Virus record (IMG/VR): IMGVR_UViG_3300044612_000719 | Span: 33,276-97,275 of that record | DNA: 64,000 nucleotides | DNA from: a virus | Reading direction: 5' to 3' (one strand) | The notes under the pieces: model-generated | Seen by the model: the letters and a program-made list of their open reading frames with translations, nothing else | The model's database searches: none | What the model was told of the DNA's origin: nothing | Translations under genes and position numbers: made by a program | In this document: piece after piece, positions 19,895 to 62,452 of the stretch | Numbering within the stretch: the stretch's first letter is position 1 | Layout of the letters: every line of letters begins with the position of its first letter

Positions 19895-20115
19895 GGGGCA
19901 ACTGTCTCCTCGGTAGGAACGGTGTCAATAAATAAAGATCCTGTGAGTGGATCAAATCCGAGCAATACGTCTGGGCATGCTCCGTCTACTTCACATGCTG
20001 GTCTTTGGCATTGTGGGGCTTCCCAGTTTGCAGGATCTTGGCATTCGTAGCGGTAACCGCCGTCGTAACCACAACCCGCAAGCAAAACAGCAGAGATGAA
20101 AAGTAGTTTCTTCAT
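19891..20115 (-). CDS. Small lipoprotein, leaderless
   Basis: MKKLLFISAVLLAGC lipobox; RYECQDPANW...C...C...C; TATAAT-N6-ATG. Confidence 0.7.
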   Translation of the reverse strand: MKKLLFISAVLLAGCGYDGGYRYECQDPANWEAPQCQRPACEVDGACPDVLLGFDPLTGSLFIDTVPTEETVAP

Positions 20116-27690: not shown

Positions 27691-27816
27691 GCGTCACGGG
27701 TCATCTTCGGATGGCTCGTGGCGCTCATAGAGCACTGGGGTTCATCCCCTGACTCCAGTGCTGTATGAGCGCAGAGCGCTCCGCTGGCAACCAGCCAGCG
27801 CAGTCCTGAGGAGGAC
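27691..27816 (+). repeat. Class I intergenic RNA element + SD hairpin GTCCT-GAGG-AGGAC
   Basis: H1 GCGTCACGGGTCATC-TTCG-GATGGCTCGTGGCGC; H2 GCGCTCATAGAGCACTGGGG...CTCCAGTGCTGTATGAGCGC. Confidence 0.75.
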
Positions 27817-27823
27817 ACACACC

Positions 27824-28342
27824 ATGAAAGCAACACGACAGCAACTACTCAATCTCGGAGCCAGCATCCTGAGCACTGCCTATGAAGGCGGGTCTTGCGG
27901 AATGGCTTCATGGGCAGTTGCCAATGGCACCTACAAGTGGGGCACGGAGAAGGGCGAAGGCGAATTGCACGGCAACGAGCACTACGCATCAGTCACCGTG
28001 TACGACACCGAAGCGTGCGAGTTGGTGGAAGACGAAGCCGAATTGGCGAAGTTGACCGATGACGATGGCTTCAATGGCTGGGGCGGGTTCTACCGCTTCG
28101 GCAAGCCACTCGTGATCAATGAGTCCATCATTGCTGACTTCATTGAGAAGATCGGCACAGGTGAGTTCAATCAGGACAATGTGCCTGACTACGGTCAACT
28201 GTCAATCAAGCGGGTGAGTGCCCTTGCAGGGTGCTACCTGTTCGGTGAAGACGCCATTGACGAATTTGAGTCCGACAATGACTGCATCGTGTCTGACACC
28301 ATCGTGCAGTTCATCCTGCTCGGTGAGGTCACATACGGCTGA
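27824..28342 (+). CDS. Early hypothetical protein (ends D..V.D.IVQ..LLGEV.YG)
   Basis: GAGGAGG RBS; start moved to MKATRQ. Confidence 0.75.
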   Translation: MKATRQQLLNLGASILSTAYEGGSCGMASWAVANGTYKWGTEKGEGELHGNEHYASVTVYDTEACELVEDEAELAKLTDDDGFNGWGGFYRFGKPLVINESIIADFIEKIGTGEFNQDNVPDYGQLSIKRVSALAGCYLFGEDAIDEFESDNDCIVSDTIVQFILLGEVTYG

Positions 28343-28346
28343 TCAA

Positions 28347-28427
28347 TCCCCCAGCGCCTAGGGCGTGGCTCTTCAATGAGCACTGGGGACTGTGAGCAAC
28401 CGCTCACTACAACGACCTGAGGAGGTC
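28347..28427 (+). repeat. Class II intergenic element (three-way junction with TTCAAT loop) + SD hairpin
   Basis: CCCCAG-CGCC.TAG.GGCG-TG-GCTC.TTCAAT.GAGC-A-CTGGGG; then GTGAGC/GCTCAC; GACCT-GAGG-AGGTC. Confidence 0.75.
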
Positions 28428-28433
28428 AACACC

Positions 28434-28841
28434 ATGAACACACTCACCAAACTGTACGAGATTCGTTTCTCGGGAACGGTTGAATGCGATATGGAGCCGA
28501 TCATGCACGACATTGCAGTCGCAATTGATAAGGGCACGCTGGAAGAGAGCGACAAGGCGTTTGCCGAGTTCGTAATGGCTCCACAGCGGATCGTGGTCAA
28601 GCGTCAAGGTAACAACACCTACGCAGTGGATCTGTCCATTGAGGGCGTGATCGCATTCGCCAAAGAGGTTGCCTATCGCAAAGAAAATGCGATTGACATC
28701 CGTACCGAGGAGGGCAGTTATGACCGAAACGGTTACAACTACCACACCAAAGTGATCCGTCAACTTGACACCGCATTGAAGGGCGCCAACAAGGTGCTCG
28801 CCAGTGTCGGTATCGCTCCAGTGACTTCATACTGGAATTGA
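28434..28841 (+). CDS. Early hypothetical protein
   Basis: SD hairpin then ATG (MNTLTK). Confidence 0.75.
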   Translation: MNTLTKLYEIRFSGTVECDMEPIMHDIAVAIDKGTLEESDKAFAEFVMAPQRIVVKRQGNNTYAVDLSIEGVIAFAKEVAYRKENAIDIRTEEGSYDRNGYNYHTKVIRQLDTALKGANKVLASVGIAPVTSYWN

Positions 28842-28847
28842 GTGATT

Positions 28848-28941
28848 GAGTGACCTAGTCACTCACCCCTAGCGCCTCGGGCGTGCCGATTCAATTCGGA
28901 CTAGGGACTGGGCAAATAGCCCTCGGAGCAGAGGAGGCTCC
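28848..28941 (+). repeat. Class II intergenic element + variant SD hairpin
   Basis: CCCTAG-CGCC.TCG.GGCG-TG-CCGA.TTCAAT.TCGG-A-CTAGGG; GGAGC-AGAGGAG-GCTCC. Confidence 0.75.
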
Positions 28942-28946
28942 ATACC

Positions 28947-29483
28947 ATGAAAACATCAGAGATAAAGCAGATAATTGCAAAGGATCCGAACGCTGTGTTT
29001 CGCATTGGCGGACGTGGTCGGTACACGCACTACGGCTCAATCACCAAGATTGAGGAGAAGGTCGTGGACACCTACAGCGCATGGGGTCGTAAGTCAGGCA
29101 CCCGTGTTGATGTGCGATTCACAGTGCGTTACGAGTACTTCACTCGTGGCGTTGAGGCTCAGTTTGGTTACCCCGAGAAGTTGCCTTCAGTGATACTGGA
29201 CGGAAACTCGTGGACTAAGCCACGTGACATTGAATGGCACGTAGCGGACTTCGGTATGACCATTGAGGAGTACGTAGCAAAGACTGATGCTGAAGTGAAG
29301 GCGGATTGGCAAGCCAAGAAGGACGACCAATACGCAAAGCAACAGCAGGTCAATGCGATCATCCGACACATCAGTAGCCCAACGGTTACCGATGCCGAGT
29401 GGAACGAACTCAACGATGATCTAGAGCGACTCAGTGTTCAGACATTGCAATTAATCAATCAGAAGATCGCATCACTTGTGTGA
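28947..29483 (+). CDS. Early hypothetical protein
   Basis: ORF track, strong RBS. Confidence 0.75.
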   Translation: MKTSEIKQIIAKDPNAVFRIGGRGRYTHYGSITKIEEKVVDTYSAWGRKSGTRVDVRFTVRYEYFTRGVEAQFGYPEKLPSVILDGNSWTKPRDIEWHVADFGMTIEEYVAKTDAEVKADWQAKKDDQYAKQQQVNAIIRHISSPTVTDAEWNELNDDLERLSVQTLQLINQKIASLV

Positions 29484-29489
29484 TGTGGT

Positions 29490-29597
29490 CGGGAGCATCA
29501 CGGGTTCGCCCGTGGTGCCCTCACAGTGCATCGGCGTTGTGTCGGTGCATTGTGAGGGCATACAATTGCCCGTTCAACTAACAGACCCGAGGAGGTC
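29490..29597 (+). repeat. Class I intergenic element + SD hairpin
   Basis: GCATCACGGG-TTCG-CCCGTGGTGC; GCCCTCACAGTGCATCGGC...GTCGGTGCATTGTGAGGGC; GACC-CGAGGA-GGTC. Confidence 0.8.
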
Positions 29598-29601
29598 AAC
29601 C

Positions 29602-29856
29602 ATGGATGCAAGTATTCACAAAGTAACTGGGTTTCGGATTGAGAAGTCCGATGACCCACGACTCAAGACAATTGATCTCGTGATTCAATACGAGGATTTG
29701 TCGTTTGTTCGTTCCCAATATGAGAACGGCAGTGAGTCATTCGGTTACGCAAAATTGGAGTCCACGATCACGCTGTTCATCAGTGACACCGTTGACATGG
29801 ACGTGGTGGTGTGGCAAGCAATTGCAAACCTCACTTCCGATCTTGCCAATAGGTGA
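29602..29856 (+). CDS. Early hypothetical protein
   Basis: SD hairpin then ATG (MDASIH). Confidence 0.7.
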   Translation: MDASIHKVTGFRIEKSDDPRLKTIDLVIQYEDLSFVRSQYENGSESFGYAKLESTITLFISDTVDMDVVVWQAIANLTSDLANR

Positions 29857-29868
29857 GTAATCCGCAGT

Positions 29869-29978
29869 GGGCAGTCATGGCGCAAGCCATGGCGTGCTCG
29901 GAGTGCACTGATCCCCCATCGGTGCATTCCGAGGACGCAAGTCCATTCACATTCCCTAACTGAAACTTGAGGAGGTTT
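29869..29978 (+). repeat. Class I intergenic element (sequence-diverged) + SD hairpin
   Basis: GTCATGGC-GCAA-GCCATGGC; CTCGGAGTGCACTGAT...ATCGGTGCATTCCGAG; GGAC-GCAA-GTCC; AAACTT-GAGG-AGGTTT. Confidence 0.75.
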
Positions 29979-29979
29979 T

Positions 29980-30696
29980 ATGGGAGCAATAACACCAAAG
30001 CAACAGGCATTCATTCGCACGATGCTCTTAGAGCGTGCTGTCACACTCGGTCTTGATGAGGCTGGTGTTGACCAGTACCTCGTAGATCAGAACGTGAATG
30101 CATTGTCAACTAAGGATGCTTCGCTCGTCATTGATGCGATCAAGAAGATTGAGATCAAGCGAGTGGGCACCGAGCACCTGCCGAAGGGTGATCGCACCAT
30201 CGTCAACAAGATCGCCAAGCCATGCCAACTGTGCGGACACACCGTGCAGATCGGTCATGGCTGGAGCGTTCAAGTTGCCAGTGGCTGGCAGACATTCCAC
30301 AAGGCTGGTGAGTGTTCAGCCGAGGTCATCGCCAAGCCAGTAGATGAGCAATCGCTCTTCGCTGATGTCAAGGATGGCTTCTATGCGTTGCAGTCAACGG
30401 GCACCAATGATCTCGTGTTCTATGCGATCAAGACCAACAAGGGCTACCACAATGCGAGCCTGAAGGGTCAACGTGGCATGTACATCGTGGTCGGCGGTCA
30501 CGCTGACGAGAAGTTGCGTGGCGAGCGCTTGGTCAATTCAATCAAGCGCATCACGTCACTCAGTGAGGATGAACGCAAGCAAGCAATGACGCTGTACGGT
30601 CAGGAGATCGGGCGCTGTTGTGTGTGCGGTCGTCATCTCACTGATGAAGCAACACGCAAGGCTGGTATCGGCAACGACTGCGCAAGCAGGTTCTAG
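29980..30696 (+). CDS. DUF6011-like zinc-binding protein
   Basis: ITPKQQAFI; CQLCG; C-terminal GRCCVCGRHLTDEATRKAGIGNDCA. Confidence 0.75.
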   Translation: MGAITPKQQAFIRTMLLERAVTLGLDEAGVDQYLVDQNVNALSTKDASLVIDAIKKIEIKRVGTEHLPKGDRTIVNKIAKPCQLCGHTVQIGHGWSVQVASGWQTFHKAGECSAEVIAKPVDEQSLFADVKDGFYALQSTGTNDLVFYAIKTNKGYHNASLKGQRGMYIVVGGHADEKLRGERLVNSIKRITSLSEDERKQAMTLYGQEIGRCCVCGRHLTDEATRKAGIGNDCASRF

Positions 30697-30701
30697 GTAG
30701 T

Positions 30702-30807
30702 CACGTCACGGGCACACGCTCGTGGCGTGCTCACATTCCATGGGAGCGATCTCGTGGAGTGTGAGCACGCAAGTGCAATTCACAATTCCAATAGACCTGA
30801 GGAGGTC
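30702..30807 (+). repeat. Class I intergenic element + SD hairpin
   Basis: CACGTCACGGGC-ACAC-GCTCGTGGCGTG; GTGCTCACATTCCATGGGA...TCTCGTGGAGTGTGAGCAC; GACCT-GAGG-AGGTC. Confidence 0.8.
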
Positions 30808-30812
30808 AGACC

Positions 30813-32342
30813 GTGAGTAATCAATTAGAGCAATTAAATACATTGCTTGGTTCACTGCATCGCATACCACCAGCAATCATTGCTGATCCTGCGTTGCTTG
30901 AATTGAGCAGTGCACATGACGGCGAATGCCCAGTGGAACTCGCTGTTCCGCTGTTCCCATTCCAACGTGCTGGTGTCGCTTATGCATTGAAGCAGAAGCG
31001 AGTGATCATCGGTGACGAGATGGGACTCGGCAAGACACCGAGCGGTATCGCTGTTGCGGTACAGGCAGTCAATGAGAAGCACAAGGTGCTCGTAGTAGTG
31101 CCACCATCGCTTCGCATCAACTGGCTTCGCTCATTCAAGATGTTCGCACCATGGCTCAACGTGGCTGTGGTGACGGGCAACAAGGTGGGCGCTCTGCCGA
31201 AGGAGCCAGTAGTCATCATCGGTGACTCCAACATTGACGCTTGGTCAATCAAGTTGGCTGGCAAGTTCGGTGCGCTCATCGTTGACGAGGCACATCGTGC
31301 CAAGACCGAGAGTGCTGGACGCACCAAGGGCATCTCATTCATTGCGAAGTCAATCCCTGAGGAGGGATACGTCACGCTGTTGAGTGGCACCATCATCGTC
31401 AATCGTCCGAACGAATTGATCAGCCCGCTGAATATTCTCGGCAGGCTTGACCGAGTGTTCGGTGGCAAATCAGCGTTTCGCTTCCGCTACTGCGATCCCA
31501 TTCACAATGGCTGGGGTTACGTGTACAACGGTGCGAGCAACACCACTGAGTTGAACGAGAAGTTGCGAGGCACGTGCTACGTGCGCCGTAACAAGTCGGA
31601 CGTGCTCACCGAGTTGCCTGCCAAGCGCCGTGCACAAGTAGCGACCGAGATCAGCGACAGCGATCTCAGCGCATACATGCACGCCGAGAATGACTTCCGT
31701 GACTTCGTTATCGCCAATGGCGGTGCTGAAGCATGGCAGAAGGCATCCAAGGCTGAGACCATCACACGCCTCAATGCACTGCGCATGTTGCTCGGTGTTG
31801 CGAAGGTGCCATACGTGGTGGATCACGTTGAGCAACTAGTTGCTGAAGGTGAGAAGGTCATCGTGTTCGCACATCACAAGGATGTCATCGCACGCTTGAC
31901 TACAGCACTCACTCCGCATGGCGTGGTGCGTGTCATCGGTGGCATGAGCGATGAAGCCAAGCAAGCATCAGTGGATGCATTTCAGAATGACCCCGAGGTC
32001 AAAGTGTTCATCGGGCAATTCCAATCTGCTGGTGTTGGTCTCACGCTCACAGCGTCATCGCACGTTGTGTTCGCTGAGATCCCATTCACGCCTGCCGAAG
32101 CCACGCAGGCTGAGGATCGTGCGCACCGCATTGGTCAGACGTCAAGCGTTCTCGCTTGGTGGATGATCGGCGTGGGTAATAACCCTGACATCCCGTTGCT
32201 GGACGATCGGATGTGGGCATTGCTCAACAGCAAGCACGAGGTCGTCTCCAGTGTTCTCACTGGACAGGGCGAAGACATGGGAGCCGAGGGTGGAAGCATC
32301 ACTCAGGCACTCATTGAAGCAATTGTCGGCAACGGCATCTGA
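30813..32342 (+). CDS. SNF2-family (SMARCAL1/HARP-like) helicase/annealing ATPase
   Basis: IIGDEMGLGKT; IVDEAH; LLSGT; GVGLTLT; QAEDRAHRIGQ. Confidence 0.9.
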   Translation: MSNQLEQLNTLLGSLHRIPPAIIADPALLELSSAHDGECPVELAVPLFPFQRAGVAYALKQKRVIIGDEMGLGKTPSGIAVAVQAVNEKHKVLVVVPPSLRINWLRSFKMFAPWLNVAVVTGNKVGALPKEPVVIIGDSNIDAWSIKLAGKFGALIVDEAHRAKTESAGRTKGISFIAKSIPEEGYVTLLSGTIIVNRPNELISPLNILGRLDRVFGGKSAFRFRYCDPIHNGWGYVYNGASNTTELNEKLRGTCYVRRNKSDVLTELPAKRRAQVATEISDSDLSAYMHAENDFRDFVIANGGAEAWQKASKAETITRLNALRMLLGVAKVPYVVDHVEQLVAEGEKVIVFAHHKDVIARLTTALTPHGVVRVIGGMSDEAKQASVDAFQNDPEVKVFIGQFQSAGVGLTLTASSHVVFAEIPFTPAEATQAEDRAHRIGQTSSVLAWWMIGVGNNPDIPLLDDRMWALLNSKHEVVSSVLTGQGEDMGAEGGSITQALIEAIVGNGI

Positions 32343-32343
32343 C

Positions 32344-32523
32344 CACTGGCGCTCGGCGCCTTCATGGTCGGTGCCTGTAGCGACATCCGAAGCGTTTAGT
32401 CCTCACTGGACGCTTCACAGTGCATCACGGGCGCAAGCCCGTGGTGTTCTCACACTCCATTGGCATATCGTTGGTGGAGTGTGAGAACATCACCCGATGT
32501 TCAACTAGCCCTTTAAGGAGGGG
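32344..32523 (+). repeat. Extra three-way structure, then class I element + SD hairpin
   Basis: CACTG...GAAGCGTTTAGT-CCTC-ACTGGACGCTTC..CAGTG; GCATCACGGGC-GCAA-GCCCGTGGTGT; TGTTCTCACACTCC...GGAGTGTGAGAACA; CCTTT-AAGG-AGGGG. Confidence 0.75.
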
Positions 32524-32526
32524 ATC

Positions 32527-32766
32527 ATGAAAGTAAGTCACGCAATTAAATTATTGAGTGAGATCAATCCTGACGAAGAGATTGCTATCTCTTGGTGGGA
32601 ATCAAACCTGTTCACCATTAGTGACAATAACGAACCACTACCAGCAGACTCAGAACTGTGGCTCAAAGCAGTCTCAGTGTTTGATGCCAACGGTGGTTAT
32701 GACAGTGTCAACCAGTTGGTGTGGGATTACCTCAATTACGACATCAAGCAAGAAGGAGAGTTCTAA
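32527..32766 (+). CDS. Early acidic hypothetical protein
   Basis: ORF track, RBS. Confidence 0.7.
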   Translation: MKVSHAIKLLSEINPDEEIAISWWESNLFTISDNNEPLPADSELWLKAVSVFDANGGYDSVNQLVWDYLNYDIKQEGEF

Positions 32767-33152
32767 TGAGCAACAACGAAACACGACCTACTGAGGGGTC
32801 AATCATCAACTTGGTTGACGTAGAAGGGAATCAATCAAAAATGAAAGTATCGGGAATCGGCACACCAATTGGTGCGTGGGCAATCATCCAATGGAAGGAC
32901 ACGCAACAGGAGGACGAGGTGTACATCTCGTTCGGCACGTGGAATGAGAACGAGTGGGGCGGTGAGTTTGACTCACTGGGCAACCGAGACGATGAGGTCT
33001 TCTTCTACTGCGAAGACGGCGAAGAGGAACTCAAGGCGCTCGTGGGCAGTAGCAACGAAGACTTCGTGGTCTTGTCGTACGACATTGACTACAGCATCCC
33101 ATTGGTACTCGCTGATATGGACGAGCCAGTCTTCGCTGAAGACGGGGAATGA
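32766..33152 (+). CDS. Early acidic hypothetical protein
   Basis: TAATG coupling, AAGGAG RBS; very Asp/Glu-rich. Confidence 0.7.
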   Translation: MSNNETRPTEGSIINLVDVEGNQSKMKVSGIGTPIGAWAIIQWKDTQQEDEVYISFGTWNENEWGGEFDSLGNRDDEVFFYCEDGEEELKALVGSSNEDFVVLSYDIDYSIPLVLADMDEPVFAEDGE

Positions 33153-33269
33153 TCGGGAGCATCACGGGCTACGGCTCGTGGTGCCCTCACAGCACATAAA
33201 TTCTGTTTGTGTGTTGTGAGGGTACAGAGTGCCCGATAAATTAGTTAATCCCTATGACCTGAGGAGGTC
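33152..33269 (+). repeat. Class I intergenic element + SD hairpin
   Basis: GCATCACGGGC-TACG-GCTCGTGGTGC; GCCCTCACAGCAC...GTGTTGTGAGGGT; GACCT-GAGG-AGGTC. Confidence 0.8.
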
Positions 33270-33271
33270 TT

Positions 33272-33631
33272 ATGTTAGAGCCAGTAATCACGATGACCGT
33301 TGAGCAATGGGAAGAGCAATACGAACCCTTTGTTAATCACCTAGATGCGGATGCATCATGGGCAACCGATGACGCCAACGGCATCATGTTTGAGACATAC
33401 GGTGCCGAAGTTGATTATGTGTTTGCCCGACCGCTCAACCACACATGGACATATGTGGACGGCGAAGAAGGCACATACATTCTTGCTGGACGCCATCTCG
33501 TAAATCGCATCGGTTACTTCGTAACTGCGGTGCCATGGAAGGATGACTTCAACACCAAGTATGAAATTCAAGTAAGTGCCAATGATGATTATTACCAAAC
33601 AGTGTTAGACCTTGAAGGAGGTAACCAATGA
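33272..33631 (+). CDS. Early hypothetical protein (FETYG.E...WT.VD...G.H.VNRIGY family)
   Basis: Recurrent phage motif; SD hairpin. Confidence 0.75.
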   Translation: MLEPVITMTVEQWEEQYEPFVNHLDADASWATDDANGIMFETYGAEVDYVFARPLNHTWTYVDGEEGTYILAGRHLVNRIGYFVTAVPWKDDFNTKYEIQVSANDDYYQTVLDLEGGNQ

Positions 33632-33858
33632 AACAACCAACAACATACATCACCACACTTGCTGTTGAAGTAGGCATGGAAGTAGAACTACTTGTGCAGA
33701 TATCTCCGAAGGAGACATTTGAATACGCAGGCATCGTCTCACACATCAGCGAGACCGAGTTGTCAATGTGGACTACAGACAGTCCGAACGACACCTACGA
33801 GAACGAGCGTGAGATTGACATCCCACTCTCAAAGATCATCTCAGTGGACGTGTTCTGA
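33628..33858 (+). CDS. Early acidic hypothetical protein
   Basis: AAGGAGG RBS in a variant hairpin. Confidence 0.65.
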   Translation: MKQPTTYITTLAVEVGMEVELLVQISPKETFEYAGIVSHISETELSMWTTDSPNDTYENEREIDIPLSKIISVDVF

Positions 33859-34109
33859 TGATCCTCGGTGGGTACCCAGTAGTGCGCAGGGACTTGGTGG
33901 AGGCGGATCTTTTGATCCCCTCCGTCAATACCAACGAGTACTACGGGGACGAGCAACTGTCCAAGATGAAGTACATCGGCAGTGTCAATGAGCAGTTTGA
34001 AGATGACGACTCGGGCGCTTACATCAAGTTCTACGCACCTGAAGGTCATGTCGTGTATCTGTACAACATTGACTTAGATTGGATTGAAACATCGTTAAGC
34101 GAGTCCTGA
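33858..34109 (+). CDS. Early acidic hypothetical protein
   Basis: TGATG coupling. Confidence 0.65.
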   Translation: MILGGYPVVRRDLVEADLLIPSVNTNEYYGDEQLSKMKYIGSVNEQFEDDDSGAYIKFYAPEGHVVYLYNIDLDWIETSLSES

Positions 34110-34123
34110 GAGGCTCGTACGAA

Positions 34124-34245
34124 GGGTGACATCAGCCTCGGCTGGTGTCATCCCGTGAGCACTCCCCTTGATCCGCCTTGGGGAGTGTTCACGGGGTGAA
34201 GCAACCCTGCAACACCCATCAACAACAATGATCTGAGGAGGTCAT
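34124..34245 (+). repeat. Class I intergenic element (diverged) + SD hairpin
   Basis: GGTGACATCAGC...GCTGGTGTCATC; CCCGTGAGCACTCCCC...GGGGAGTGTTCACGGG; ATGATCT-GAGG-AGGTCAT. Confidence 0.75.
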
Positions 34246-34491
34246 ATGAAGCAATGGAATGTCACACTCTCGCTCCAAACGGGCGTGTATCTAGAAGGAG
34301 TCAATGCAAAGGATCCACTGGCACTGTACGAGGGCGACCTTAGTTACAGCGCTGTGGTCACAGCATTGATTGATCAATTGCAATCAGGTCAAGCAACACT
34401 TGACTGGGTCGTAGAGGAAGTGGAAACACTGGACGGCGTCACCGTATGCCGTGACGATGAAGATCATGTATGGATGGGAGACGTGGTATGA
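34246..34491 (+). CDS. Early hypothetical protein
   Basis: ORF track, SD hairpin. Confidence 0.65.
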   Translation: MKQWNVTLSLQTGVYLEGVNAKDPLALYEGDLSYSAVVTALIDQLQSGQATLDWVVEEVETLDGVTVCRDDEDHVWMGDVV

Positions 34492-34694
34492 GCAAAGGCT
34501 GGGTCTCACAGATCGTCATGCTTCTCGGAGTCACCGAGATGGAAGCCGAGCAGATGGACAAGTACGCCCTTGAAGAAGGACTGTACAACGAGATAGATAG
34601 CAGTGAAGCCACCGTGGCAGAACTCAAAGGGTTCTACACGATGGTCTGCGATGAGTACAGAAGAGCAAACAACATTCAAACAAAGAGCCTTTAG
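34488..34694 (+). CDS. Early hypothetical protein
   Basis: ATGA overlap, GGGAG RBS. Confidence 0.6.
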   Translation: MSKGWVSQIVMLLGVTEMEAEQMDKYALEEGLYNEIDSSEATVAELKGFYTMVCDEYRRANNIQTKSL

Positions 34695-34702
34695 GAGGGC
34701 AT

Positions 34703-35812: not shown

Positions 35813-36835
35813 ATGTCAAGAGAAACCAGCCAGTGGCTCAACCAGAACGTTCTGGTGGGCTTTACATCCAAGCGTGGAAACGCATGGCACTACAAGTCAA
35901 CCGATCAGGGCACCGAGCCAAACCATTACGAGCAGGCAATCCCTGTTGAGGACGTCCGTCGTCGCTTGTTCAACTGGCAAGCAATTGAAGCGCCAGTGTT
36001 CGTGCAGGTTCCACAACTGTCAACGTACAAGTATGTTGAGCAGACCGACCGTAAGGCAATCGTGCGCAGTGACAACAATGCTGTGCTCGGTATGTTCAAA
36101 GACTCATATCAGATCCACCAGTACGACCAGTGGTTGATCGGCACCATCAGCAACATCATTGATGACAGCAACCTTCAGATCGGTTCTGCGGGCTTGCTTC
36201 GCAACGGTGGTGTGGCTTGGGTCAGCATTGAAATGCCTGAGACGGTCACCACCAAGGCAGGTTTTGACATCCGTCCACACTTGCTTGGCACCACGAGCCA
36301 CAACGGCACCATTGCAACCACCTTCAAACGAGTGGTCACTGCGGTGGTCTGCGACAACACGCTCGCTGGAGCGCTCGGTGAGCAGGGATCAGAGTTCAAG
36401 ATCCGTCACAGCAAGTTCAGCAACGGACGCATTCAAGACATCCGTGACGCCCTTGGCATCATTCATGCCATGGCAGATGAAGCAAGCGCAGAGATTGAGC
36501 GCTTGGCATCAATCACAGTTGCTCAGTCCGAATGGGATGCCATCGTGGAGCGCTTGATTCCAGTAAGCCTTGAGTTGGACGCTCGCCCACAAGCGATCAG
36601 CCGTGCTCAGAACAAGCAAGAGTTGGTACGCCACCTCTACAAGCACGACCCACGTGTTGAGCCTTGGGCAGGAACGGGTCTCGGAGTGTTGCAGGCATTC
36701 AATACATGGAGCCAGCACTTCAGTGGCAAAGACGACTCACGTGTGGAGCGCAATGCGTTCAATGCAATCAACGGCAAGACCGATGAGTTTGACCGTCAGG
36801 TTTTGCGCATCATGAATGACGTTGTCTTTGCATGA
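35813..36835 (+). CDS. DUF932 (LGT_TIGR03299-type) phage/plasmid protein
   Basis: AWH; SAGLLRNGGVAW; TSHNGT; VVCDNTL; KIRH. Confidence 0.85.
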   Translation: MSRETSQWLNQNVLVGFTSKRGNAWHYKSTDQGTEPNHYEQAIPVEDVRRRLFNWQAIEAPVFVQVPQLSTYKYVEQTDRKAIVRSDNNAVLGMFKDSYQIHQYDQWLIGTISNIIDDSNLQIGSAGLLRNGGVAWVSIEMPETVTTKAGFDIRPHLLGTTSHNGTIATTFKRVVTAVVCDNTLAGALGEQGSEFKIRHSKFSNGRIQDIRDALGIIHAMADEASAEIERLASITVAQSEWDAIVERLIPVSLELDARPQAISRAQNKQELVRHLYKHDPRVEPWAGTGLGVLQAFNTWSQHFSGKDDSRVERNAFNAINGKTDEFDRQVLRIMNDVVFA

Positions 36836-37197
36836 ACCGTTGGGATTACTACGATGATGCGGGGGAGTCAAATCCCCCGCTACATTGGGAACTCACAATC
36901 AACAGAGACATCATAGATCCGTTGCCATTCCCCGATAGTGGTGTGTGGCGTGCGCATTCATCGTGTCGTCACGAAGATGTGTCTACCTTCTTTGCTACTG
37001 GCGAAGCGGGTTACACACGAGAAATAAGAAGTAAGCGATTGGAAGCCATTTCAATCTGCAAAGGCTGTCCAGTGTCATTCCAGTGCCTACGCTATGCCGT
37101 CAAGAACGACATGCGCTGGGGCGTGTGGGGTGGCAAGGATATGCAGTCGCTTGAAAAGGTTGAGCGTATTAAGTTACGCAAGATCTTCAATAAGTGA
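36832..37197 (+). CDS. whiB: WhiB-family Fe-S transcription factor
   Basis: W....C.....FF...AISICKGCPVSFQCLRYA...GVWGG. Confidence 0.9.
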   Translation: MNRWDYYDDAGESNPPLHWELTINRDIIDPLPFPDSGVWRAHSSCRHEDVSTFFATGEAGYTREIRSKRLEAISICKGCPVSFQCLRYAVKNDMRWGVWGGKDMQSLEKVERIKLRKIFNK

Positions 37198-47468: not shown

Positions 47469-47759
47469 TTACCTCACCACTGGTTTGAATGAGATAGCCG
47501 AAATGGCTTCTCCGTTATCTCCAATAATATCATCAAAGCCAATAATGTAAGTGAGGTCAACACCACGTGGGGCAACAAAGCCTCTAGCAATTGCAGCGGC
47601 TTTTGCTGCTTGGTTGACTGCACTTGCACCGATGGCTCGCATCTTTGGCGATTGCCCAGCGTTTACAGCACGGGCAAGAATAGAGCCAACGCTTTGAGGG
47701 TTGCTGGAACCTGAGACTTTAAGGACGTCTTCAATTGCAGAATTAAGTTCTTGCGACAT
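47469..47759 (-). CDS. spoVS: SpoVS-family (Alba-like) protein
   Basis: VLKVSGSSNPQSVG...RAIGASAVNQAAKAAAIARGFVAPRGVDL...F.DI. Confidence 0.9.
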   Translation of the reverse strand: MSQELNSAIEDVLKVSGSSNPQSVGSILARAVNAGQSPKMRAIGASAVNQAAKAAAIARGFVAPRGVDLTYIIGFDDIIGDNGEAISAISFKPVVR

Positions 47760-62257: not shown

Positions 62258-62311
62258 AACGCTCCTCAGGTTGTTATCTAGGGTCGCCATGCTACACTCT
62301 CGCCAGCGCTT

Positions 62312-62340: not shown

Positions 62341-62346
62341 GTTTAG

Positions 62347-62440
62347 AGTGTTGGGAGGAGGGCGACCTCCTCAGGACGACAGAGCGGGGGCTTTCCCTCC
62401 TTTCTCCCCCGCCCGTGTTTATGGCTCTCCTCCCAACCGC
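62347..62440 (+). ncRNA. Candidate trans-acting small RNA with two C-rich anti-SD segments
   Basis: 14-bp closing stem GTTGGGAGGAGGGC/GCTCTCCTCCCAAC (G-U on plus strand); GACCTCCTCAGGAC; GCGGGGG-CTTTCCCTCCTTTCT-CCCCCGC. Confidence 0.55.
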
Positions 62441-62452
62441 TAAACTTGTTTG

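Follow-up and report, generated by a model that had tools for sequence, protein, structure and literature searches.

A plus-strand block of putative early genes, at 27.8-37.2 kb of a 64-kb stretch of viral DNA (the window; positions 33,276 to 97,275 of IMG/VR record IMGVR_UViG_3300044612_000719), carries a repeated hairpin around the Shine-Dalgarno sequence (SD) of its genes. The hairpin is genuine, is under selection as an RNA structure, and is specific to the early block. It is a structure-defined form of the start-associated sequence (SAS) and extended start-associated sequence (ESAS) kind, the SAS being the closest known element. The source virus record is 97,275 bp long with 47% G+C, and we take its contig and those compared with it to be derived from freshwater metagenomes. 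The block begins at a divergent non-coding region and contains small genes of unknown function together with an SNF2-type helicase gene.

Genes were called crudely in the whole genome of the window (G000) and in four relatives with complete or near-complete genomes (G001-G004). A helicase protein search yielded 25 closely related IMG/VR loci (64-97% identity). For comparison of individual sites, an ungapped alignment was made of 109 unique AGGAGG start sites from approximately 25 related IMG/VR contigs.

All eleven SD hairpins that a first-pass annotation of the window had listed were found at the same positions (Table 1). Nine were canonical or near-canonical and two were variants. In the canonical layout, seen at nine sites, a 5' arm is followed by a 4-nucleotide (nt) loop, mostly GAGG, and by a 3' arm starting with AGG; the 3' half of the SD and the next one to four bases pair with an anti-SD-like pyrimidine arm 4 nt upstream. 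Each of the eleven hairpins contained a near-perfect SD located 3-9 nt upstream of a start codon. When folded in a 120-nt context, eight of the eleven formed the canonical SD hairpin with a key pair probability of 0.66-1.0, and the other three (28925, 32510, and 33609) adopted the hairpin in a shifted register. Local folding free energies (dG) ranged from -4.1 to -8.1 kcal/mol.

Placement of the SD varied, with half of it in the stem, all of it in the loop, or all of it in the 3' arm. Across the family, 74 sites had the GAGG loop, and 24 had one of nine other loops (4-7 nt). The early-gene SDs were strong: up to 8-9 nt were complementary to the 16S tail, and the match to AGGAGG averaged 5.7 of 6 positions in early genes versus 4.1 of 6 in other genes.

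SD hairpins of at least 5 base pairs (bp) were present at 9 of the 12 block genes, compared to 2.2 expected from shuffles of the 5' flanks (binomial, 3e-5). The other genes of the same genome were at chance level, with 18 of 137 carrying such a hairpin and 16.7 expected. Counts for the early blocks of the five genomes were 9/12, 8/14, 12/14, 6/12, and 10/16, with shuffle expectations of 1-2.6 each, and all other genes in the five genomes were at shuffle expectation. Pooled over the five genomes, 45 of 68 block genes had the hairpin versus 78 of 651 other genes (Fisher, 6e-22). Among the relatives, canonical stems of 4 bp or more were found at 204 of 268 AGGAGG sequences next to start codons, but at only 4 of 85 AGGAGG sequences elsewhere. 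The hairpins were therefore not equally frequent at all ribosome-binding sites or in shuffled sequence, and the enrichment was limited to the early block.

Using a covariance model built from hairpin sites, both strands of 254 kb of sequence (the window, G001, and G003) were scanned. At E<1 the matches were confined to the coding strand of the early blocks, bar one coincidental site inside the helicase gene. The model also recovered 12 sites in the part of G003 that lay outside the training set.

The alignment of 109 unique sites revealed extensive compensatory change. Pair 6:17 was AU at 61 sites, GC at 15, CG at 5, and UA at 5, while pair 5:18 was GC at 48 sites, UA at 21, AU at 7, GU at 2, and CG at 1. 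The two outer pairs covaried, and all four Watson-Crick types occurred. Positions facing the SD guanines were occupied by C or U only, including 17 and 23 U-G pairs. The covariation score was 0.273, compared to 0.154 +/- 0.009 in shuffles (0 of 500 reached the observed score) and 0.07-0.12 when the partners were slid along the alignment. Stability was conserved as well, with a dG of -4.5 or lower in 87% of the unique sites versus 11% of flank shuffles. The tolerance of U-G pairs, taken together with the strand specificity of the matches, indicates that pairing takes place in the mRNA; a DNA palindrome or DNA-binding site was ruled out on the same grounds.

Compensated stems were also found among orthologous sites. 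At the helicase start, the window and two relatives shared one stem, and most other loci had a longer stem in which the outer G-C pair was replaced by U-A. Grouping sites according to the N-terminus of the downstream protein gave approximately 16 orthologue groups, each with two to three different stems, all of them paired. These stems had a dG of -4.5 to -8.1 and were longer where the pairs were weak. The first-pass annotation had proposed that stem sequences change with pairing kept and that the structure is under selection; significant covariation and the shuffle controls bear this out.

Structured RNA extended upstream of the SD hairpins. In total, nine sites were preceded by an intergenic region of approximately 90-185 nt, and at least five of these regions contained two large hairpins, forming a cassette (Table 1). 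The first large hairpin often had a GNRA loop, and some cassettes added a third small hairpin with a GNRA (GCAA) loop. Upstream of the helicase gene, where covariation of the cassette was tested, 13 pairs showed compensatory changes. The 8 nt directly 5' of the SD stem were A/C-rich, with 2-8% G at most positions versus 28% G in the block. The hairpins at 33609 and 34687 lie at tight gene junctions and have neither spacer nor cassette.

A scan of the block for sigma-70 promoters and intrinsic terminators gave results at or below shuffle level, with none within cassettes or between genes. As the block has no internal promoters or intrinsic terminators, its genes are probably carried on one long polycistronic transcript, and the cassettes may be processing sites or may proof this long early transcript against Rho or terminators. 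When G001 is compared with G002, stretches of homology end at the SD sites, and entire cassettes have been exchanged. Part of the stem turnover is cassette replacement, and the hairpin is always re-established either way.

Table 1. Positions of SD hairpins and associated RNA elements in the window
Feature	Position	Strand	Description
SD hairpin 1	27803..27816	+	5 bp, GAGG loop; start codon 27824; pair probability 1.0, -7.4 kcal/mol; covariance-model match
SD hairpin 2	28414..28427	+	5 bp, GAGG loop; start codon 28434; supported by fold and covariance model
SD hairpin 3, variant	28925..28941	+	5-bp stem with the entire SD in a 7-nt loop; start codon 28947; -8.1 kcal/mol
SD hairpin 4	29584..29597	+	4 bp, 6-nt loop; start codon 29602; supported by fold and covariance model
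SD hairpin 5	29963..29978	+	6-8 bp including a U-G pair; start codon 29980 (DUF6011 protein)
SD hairpin 6	30794..30807	+	5 bp; start codon 30813 (SNF2-type helicase); orthologues have a different, compensated stem
SD hairpin 7	32510..32523	+	5 bp including U-G pairs; one-base shift in the best fold; start codon 32527
SD hairpin 8	33256..33269	+	5 bp; start codon 33272; supported by fold and covariance model
SD hairpin 9, variant	33609..33622	+	Lies at a tight gene junction; 5-bp stem with GAAG loop; 3' arm contains the SD core; start codon 33628
SD hairpin 10	34228..34245	+	7 bp including a U-G pair; abuts start codon 34246; covariance-model match
SD hairpin 11	34687..34700	+	5 bp including a U-G pair, TAGG loop; tight gene junction; start codon 34703; covariance-model match
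Weak twelfth case	32751..32764	+	4-bp stem, SD in 6-nt loop; start codon 32766
Structured intergenic cassette (example)	29497..29559	+	Two covarying hairpins, no U-tract, ahead of SD hairpin
Further cassette	30701-30776	+	Same type; followed by G-poor, A/C-rich spacer
Further cassette	32423-32487	+	Same type; followed by G-poor, A/C-rich spacer
Further cassette	33160-33222	+	Same type; followed by G-poor, A/C-rich spacer
Further cassette	34128-34195	+	Same type; followed by G-poor, A/C-rich spacer
Possible trans partner RNA	62344..62446	+	Structured RNA behind its own putative promoter; mirror image of SD hairpin in the junction; 16S-3'-tail-like CCUCCUUUCU in apical loop

Several sites of related sequence or structure were observed apart from the canonical early set. 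The match inside the helicase coding sequence, at 31355-31372 (+), is a perfect 6-bp hairpin with a GAGG loop and no start codon in range, and is probably a coincidence of Pro-Glu-Glu-Gly codons. Outside the window, at approximately 20030-20060 (-) of G000:C1, a hairpin of 8 bp with the loop AGG encloses the SD of a structural-region gene (359 aa). The hairpin is kept in G001, G002, and G004, has an altered form in G003, and is a rare case outside the early block. At 62258-62275 (-), the ribosome-binding site of the first gene of a long minus-strand operon, encoding a helix-turn-helix protein, contains the same CCUGAGGAG core with no hairpin. Within the early set of G001 (locus L017, 20841-26485), five or six sites have a 5-nt loop, with an extra A before GAGG, and different stems. 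A concerted change of these sites by parallel mutation was considered and rejected, the difference being mostly whole-cassette replacement, apparently from another lineage.

With respect to the host, a WhiB gene is located at 36832-37197, and the WhiB, DUF6011, and DUF932 genes of the phage suggest an actinobacterial host. Scanning genome contigs with WhiB for a host found no relatives. A megablast search of the early block against cultured phages gave no match, and the helicase was no more than 36% identical to the helicase of any isolated phage, indicating that the virus has no cultured relative.

Two further features of the phage relate to possible protein partners. A gene for an Alba-like SpoVS protein at 47469-47759 (-) was 86-99% identical across the five genomes, far above the conservation of the helicase. 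SpoVS belongs to the Alba-like superfamily of nucleic-acid-binding proteins (PMC2732212). A separate hairpin at 34088-34190 (+), with its core at 34100-34117, is near-identical to the core of the PyrR binding loop (RF00515, 41 bits against a cut-off of 54 bits) and overlaps the stop codon of the gene ending at 34109. It occurred as one copy per genome in 13 related sequences (12 plus the genome of the window), with compensatory stem changes and an invariant loop, and host PyrR may possibly control the early gene downstream.

A cis-acting gate on initiation at an over-strong SD, with standby loading of 30S subunits from the G-poor spacer, is the best fit to these data, and we give it an even chance of being correct. 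What the data show is the structure and the selection acting on it, its restriction to one gene class, the narrow range of its energies, and a spacer poor in G. According to this model, a small hairpin whose stability is tuned to about -5 to -7.5 kcal/mol would close the over-strong SD, 30S subunits would wait on the unstructured A/C-rich spacer (standby binding), and entry would occur via the exposed GAGG loop. Early genes heading cassettes would then have a similar, damped, and context-independent initiation rate. The closed form could in addition be exploited by a trans factor, which in some lineages might be a mirror-image RNA. An effect on translation, standby loading, and "early" timing are the parts of this model that we infer.

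Folding calculations are consistent with such a gate. In silico, the SD was cheaper to free when A-rich sequence stood in place of the 5' arm, at 1.5-5 rather than 4-8 kcal/mol; because the 5' arm raises this cost, the hairpin would be a brake and not a helper. An "insulator" role, in which the hairpin would shield the SD from worse long-range pairing, was rejected given that the SD was more accessible without the 5' arm. In RNA thermometers such as ROSE and fourU the SD stem opens within the physiological temperature range; here, the predicted dG of -5 to -7.4 kcal/mol at 37 C and the G-C pairs suggest that the stems would stay closed at lake temperatures. Variation in loop size (4-7 nt) and SD register at kept stability also appears to fit a thermodynamic role better than recognition by a shape-specific ligand.

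Some observations weigh against a purely thermodynamic gate. The first loop base was G in approximately 80% of sites, though A would pair better with 16S, and the exact CCUGAGGAGG core was conserved beyond the needs of a thermodynamic role or of 16S pairing. Together, the conserved loop G and core hint at a sequence-reading partner. A mirror-image RNA is conserved in most of the genomes. In addition, the label "early" is putative and was drawn only from the position, layout, and gene content of the block.

The mirror-image RNA (62344-62446) leads to a rival explanation, in which the hairpins are targets of this anti-SD RNA and translation of the early set is shut off jointly. Exactly one reverse copy of the 10-nt core was found, approximately 31 kb away, in four of the five complete genomes (G000, G001, G002, and G004). 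The RNA has a conserved promoter-like sequence and two helical elements, an outer stem of 14 bp and an inner hairpin, each showing compensatory changes; its G-U pairs are compatible with the plus strand only. The CCUCCUUUCU in its apical loop corresponds to the 3' tail of actinobacterial 16S rRNA, and the RNA could pair with 10-14 nt of the SD hairpins.

A comparable layout was found in Cluster K mycobacteriophages. In Adephagia, 16 forward SAS copies are preceded by CA-rich stretches, and the single reverse copy is in the loop of a long hairpin within a 430-bp non-coding gap. This non-coding region (Adephagia L052, 33560-33760; L113-L118) was found in 137 phages, mostly unannotated. It contains a conserved TAGACT that may be a promoter -10 box. 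Three helices are also present, and their compensatory and G-U changes fit the plus strand. The last helix shows an anti-SAS/CCUCCU sequence in its loop. The parallel between the freshwater family and Cluster K is striking and at this stage remains a lead.

As the main reason for keeping the hairpins, the mirror-image RNA is nevertheless unlikely. In the G003 clade, 14 canonical hairpins are kept although neither a mirror nor a CCUCCU element occurs on that strand, be it at the syntenic locus or elsewhere. No co-variation was seen between the RNA and either the stem variants or the 5-nt-loop variant of G001, and covariation of the outer pairs is inexplicable by pairing to a fixed RNA. Within Cluster K, the loop of the region in Ekdilam has drifted to a more generic CCUCCU that is still like the 16S tail, while the SAS is unchanged; co-variation of loop and SAS was thus negative in this phage. 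By inspection, the mirror segment is also able to pair with the RNA's own 5' arm in a local hairpin (7 bp, GNRA loop), which offers an explanation in cis. Absence from G003, lack of co-variation, and cis pairing together argue that the mirror-image RNA is not the reason the hairpins are kept. It is at most an add-on, and a role as accessory regulator is somewhat more probable than one as the main reason. The RNA lies directly upstream of an SD-less gene (start at approximately 62454) and may be a leader, perhaps a two-state one that uses the alternative local hairpin. Of the small RNA proposed in the first-pass annotation, a real, covarying plus-strand RNA therefore stands, and the idea that it is the common handle explaining the hairpins does not.

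That the hairpins are operators for an RNA-binding protein (the phage SpoVS, an early protein of another kind, or a host protein), repressing or activating the whole set, is distinctly unlikely in our assessment. Operators classically show a conserved loop on top of a covarying stem, the loop G is retained as described above, SpoVS is highly conserved in all five genomes including G003, and the PyrR-like hairpin lies in the same operon. However, ten different loops of 4-7 nt and three SD registers were found, and this variation in loop size and register disfavors an operator that depends on a specific geometry. No candidate protein was linked to the hairpins by position or co-variation; this includes SpoVS, which was put forward in the first-pass annotation and is indeed present and conserved in the phage. 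Searches of the phage for CsrA (PF02599) and for the phosphoribosyltransferase (PRTase)/PyrR family were negative, as was a search for RegB (PF10715), which also found none in control genomes and is of unestablished sensitivity. The PyrR binding loop model (RF00515) gave no match to the SD hairpins at E up to 1.

A function in mRNA processing or stability, with the SD hairpin and a bound 30S subunit guarding a new 5' end in the manner of STAB-SD, or with the hairpin as a cleavage mark for shut-off, is quite improbable. Cleavage of the long early transcript would fall either within the C-rich spacer or at one of the large hairpins. In favor are the single-stranded, C/A-rich nature of the spacer, the very strong SDs, and the resemblance of the long, structured, terminator-free spacers to the early RNase III sites of T7. 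The two hairpins at tight gene junctions have no spacer or cassette, however, and no nuclease candidate was found in the phage. It is highly improbable that the hairpins have no RNA function and are by-products of conserved recombination linkers where cassettes adjoin, or of CCU and AGG being complementary by chance. The coincidence of homology breaks with SD sites and the swapping of whole cassettes would agree with a by-product, but the compensatory changes, the restriction to C or U opposite G, the narrow dG range, and the shuffle controls speak against it, as does the absence of the hairpin from non-start AGGAGG and from other genes. Covariation and the control statistics have already largely refuted it. 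The cis-acting gate remains the preferred reading.

Combining the gate with the mirror-image RNA gives a two-part RNA switch of early genes in both the freshwater family and Cluster K, consisting of a half-closed strong SD and an RNA that shows the mirror sequence and/or a mimic of the 16S tail. We regard such a switch as rather unlikely. In it, the RNA would titrate the SD sites or vie with ribosomes for access to them, and the whole early class would be turned off. If true, the switch would account for SAS elements, which have lacked an explanation since 2011.

Several known systems share features with the hairpins. CsrA/RsmE targets are short hairpins overlapping the SD with GGA near the loop, and the first-pass annotation had named CsrA as an analogue. 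Here the GGA is split between loop (GG) and closing pair (A), the phage has no CsrA match, and to our knowledge Actinobacteria do not have CsrA. The other suggested analogue, RegB of T4, cleaves GGAG in early SD sites. It likewise resembles the present case in that a mark specific to early genes lies inside the SD and lets them be inactivated together, with GGAG partly in the loop. RegB with S1 needs an A-rich 3' context, and structure protects against RegB (PMC3014915). The 3' context of the hairpins is instead a paired arm, and the search of unestablished sensitivity noted above found no homologue in the phage. Neither analogy was therefore retained, and what survives of the earlier interpretation is the selected RNA structure and the analogy to SAS, without CsrA, RegB, the small RNA, or SpoVS as the handle.

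SD-sequestering hairpins and ribosome standby sites were reportedly worked out by de Smit and van Duin, and are said to include the MS2 coat gene and T4 genes 25 and 38. As in those systems, a local stem over the SD would set the initiation rate, and a single-stranded flank would hold the waiting 30S subunit. The difference is that single genes are involved there, whereas here a stereotyped module is repeated over a gene class and conserved in a family. The early RNase III sites of T7 and the mobile PeSL cassettes of T4 are structured spacers between early genes. The cassette borders reported here are likewise recombination breakpoints, but this likeness concerns the large upstream hairpins and not the SD hairpin, and no promoter was found in the cassettes. 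The arrangement is a compact and portable design (structured insulator, G-poor landing pad, and gated strong SD) that heads swappable early-gene cassettes, and could be of use in understanding phage takeover programmes and as a source of expression parts for actinobacteria.

SAS and ESAS elements were described in Cluster K mycobacteriophages (PMC3203893) and in Cluster EF Microbacterium phages (PMC7302621), where their function was stated to be unknown. Catalogues of SAS in actinophages go back to 2011, with no mechanism given. The analogy to SAS made in the first-pass annotation is the right one, as position, copy number, gene class, orientation, and the upstream inverted repeat all agree. 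Both systems comprise 10-19 repeat copies with an SD core, located 3-9 nt upstream of start codons; here the SD-core motif was near starts at 11-12 sites of the window and at 98 of 109 unique family sites. Both are restricted to non-structural genes in one orientation (by the pattern in five genomes here and by the covariance model in the window, G001, and G003), and SAS occur in actinophages, an actinobacterial host being suggested here by WhiB, DUF6011, and DUF932. The outer ends are symmetric in each case (GGG...CCC in SAS), and an upstream inverted repeat often accompanies both, with two large hairpins in at least five regions here. A CA-rich stretch is often located upstream, as seen here in Adephagia. 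The K1 subcluster also has a single reverse copy away from a gene start, confirmed in Adephagia and paralleled here in four of five complete genomes.

The two elements differ in how they are defined. SAS is a fixed 13-bp sequence (GGGATAGGAGCCC or GGGAAAGGACCCC), whereas the present element has a CCUGAGGAGG core with covarying flanks in place of a fixed sequence. SAS has a potential stem of 3 bp with the SD in the loop, compared to the variable stem of 4-8 bp that occludes half of the SD here. According to earlier reports, the arms of ESAS do not support pairing as RNA, whereas the upstream repeats described here covary as RNA, as tested at the helicase gene. The present element is thus of SAS type but defined by structure and not by sequence, which is new relative to known SAS, and its abundant compensatory changes are the first clear evidence that elements of this type act as RNA hairpins around the SD.

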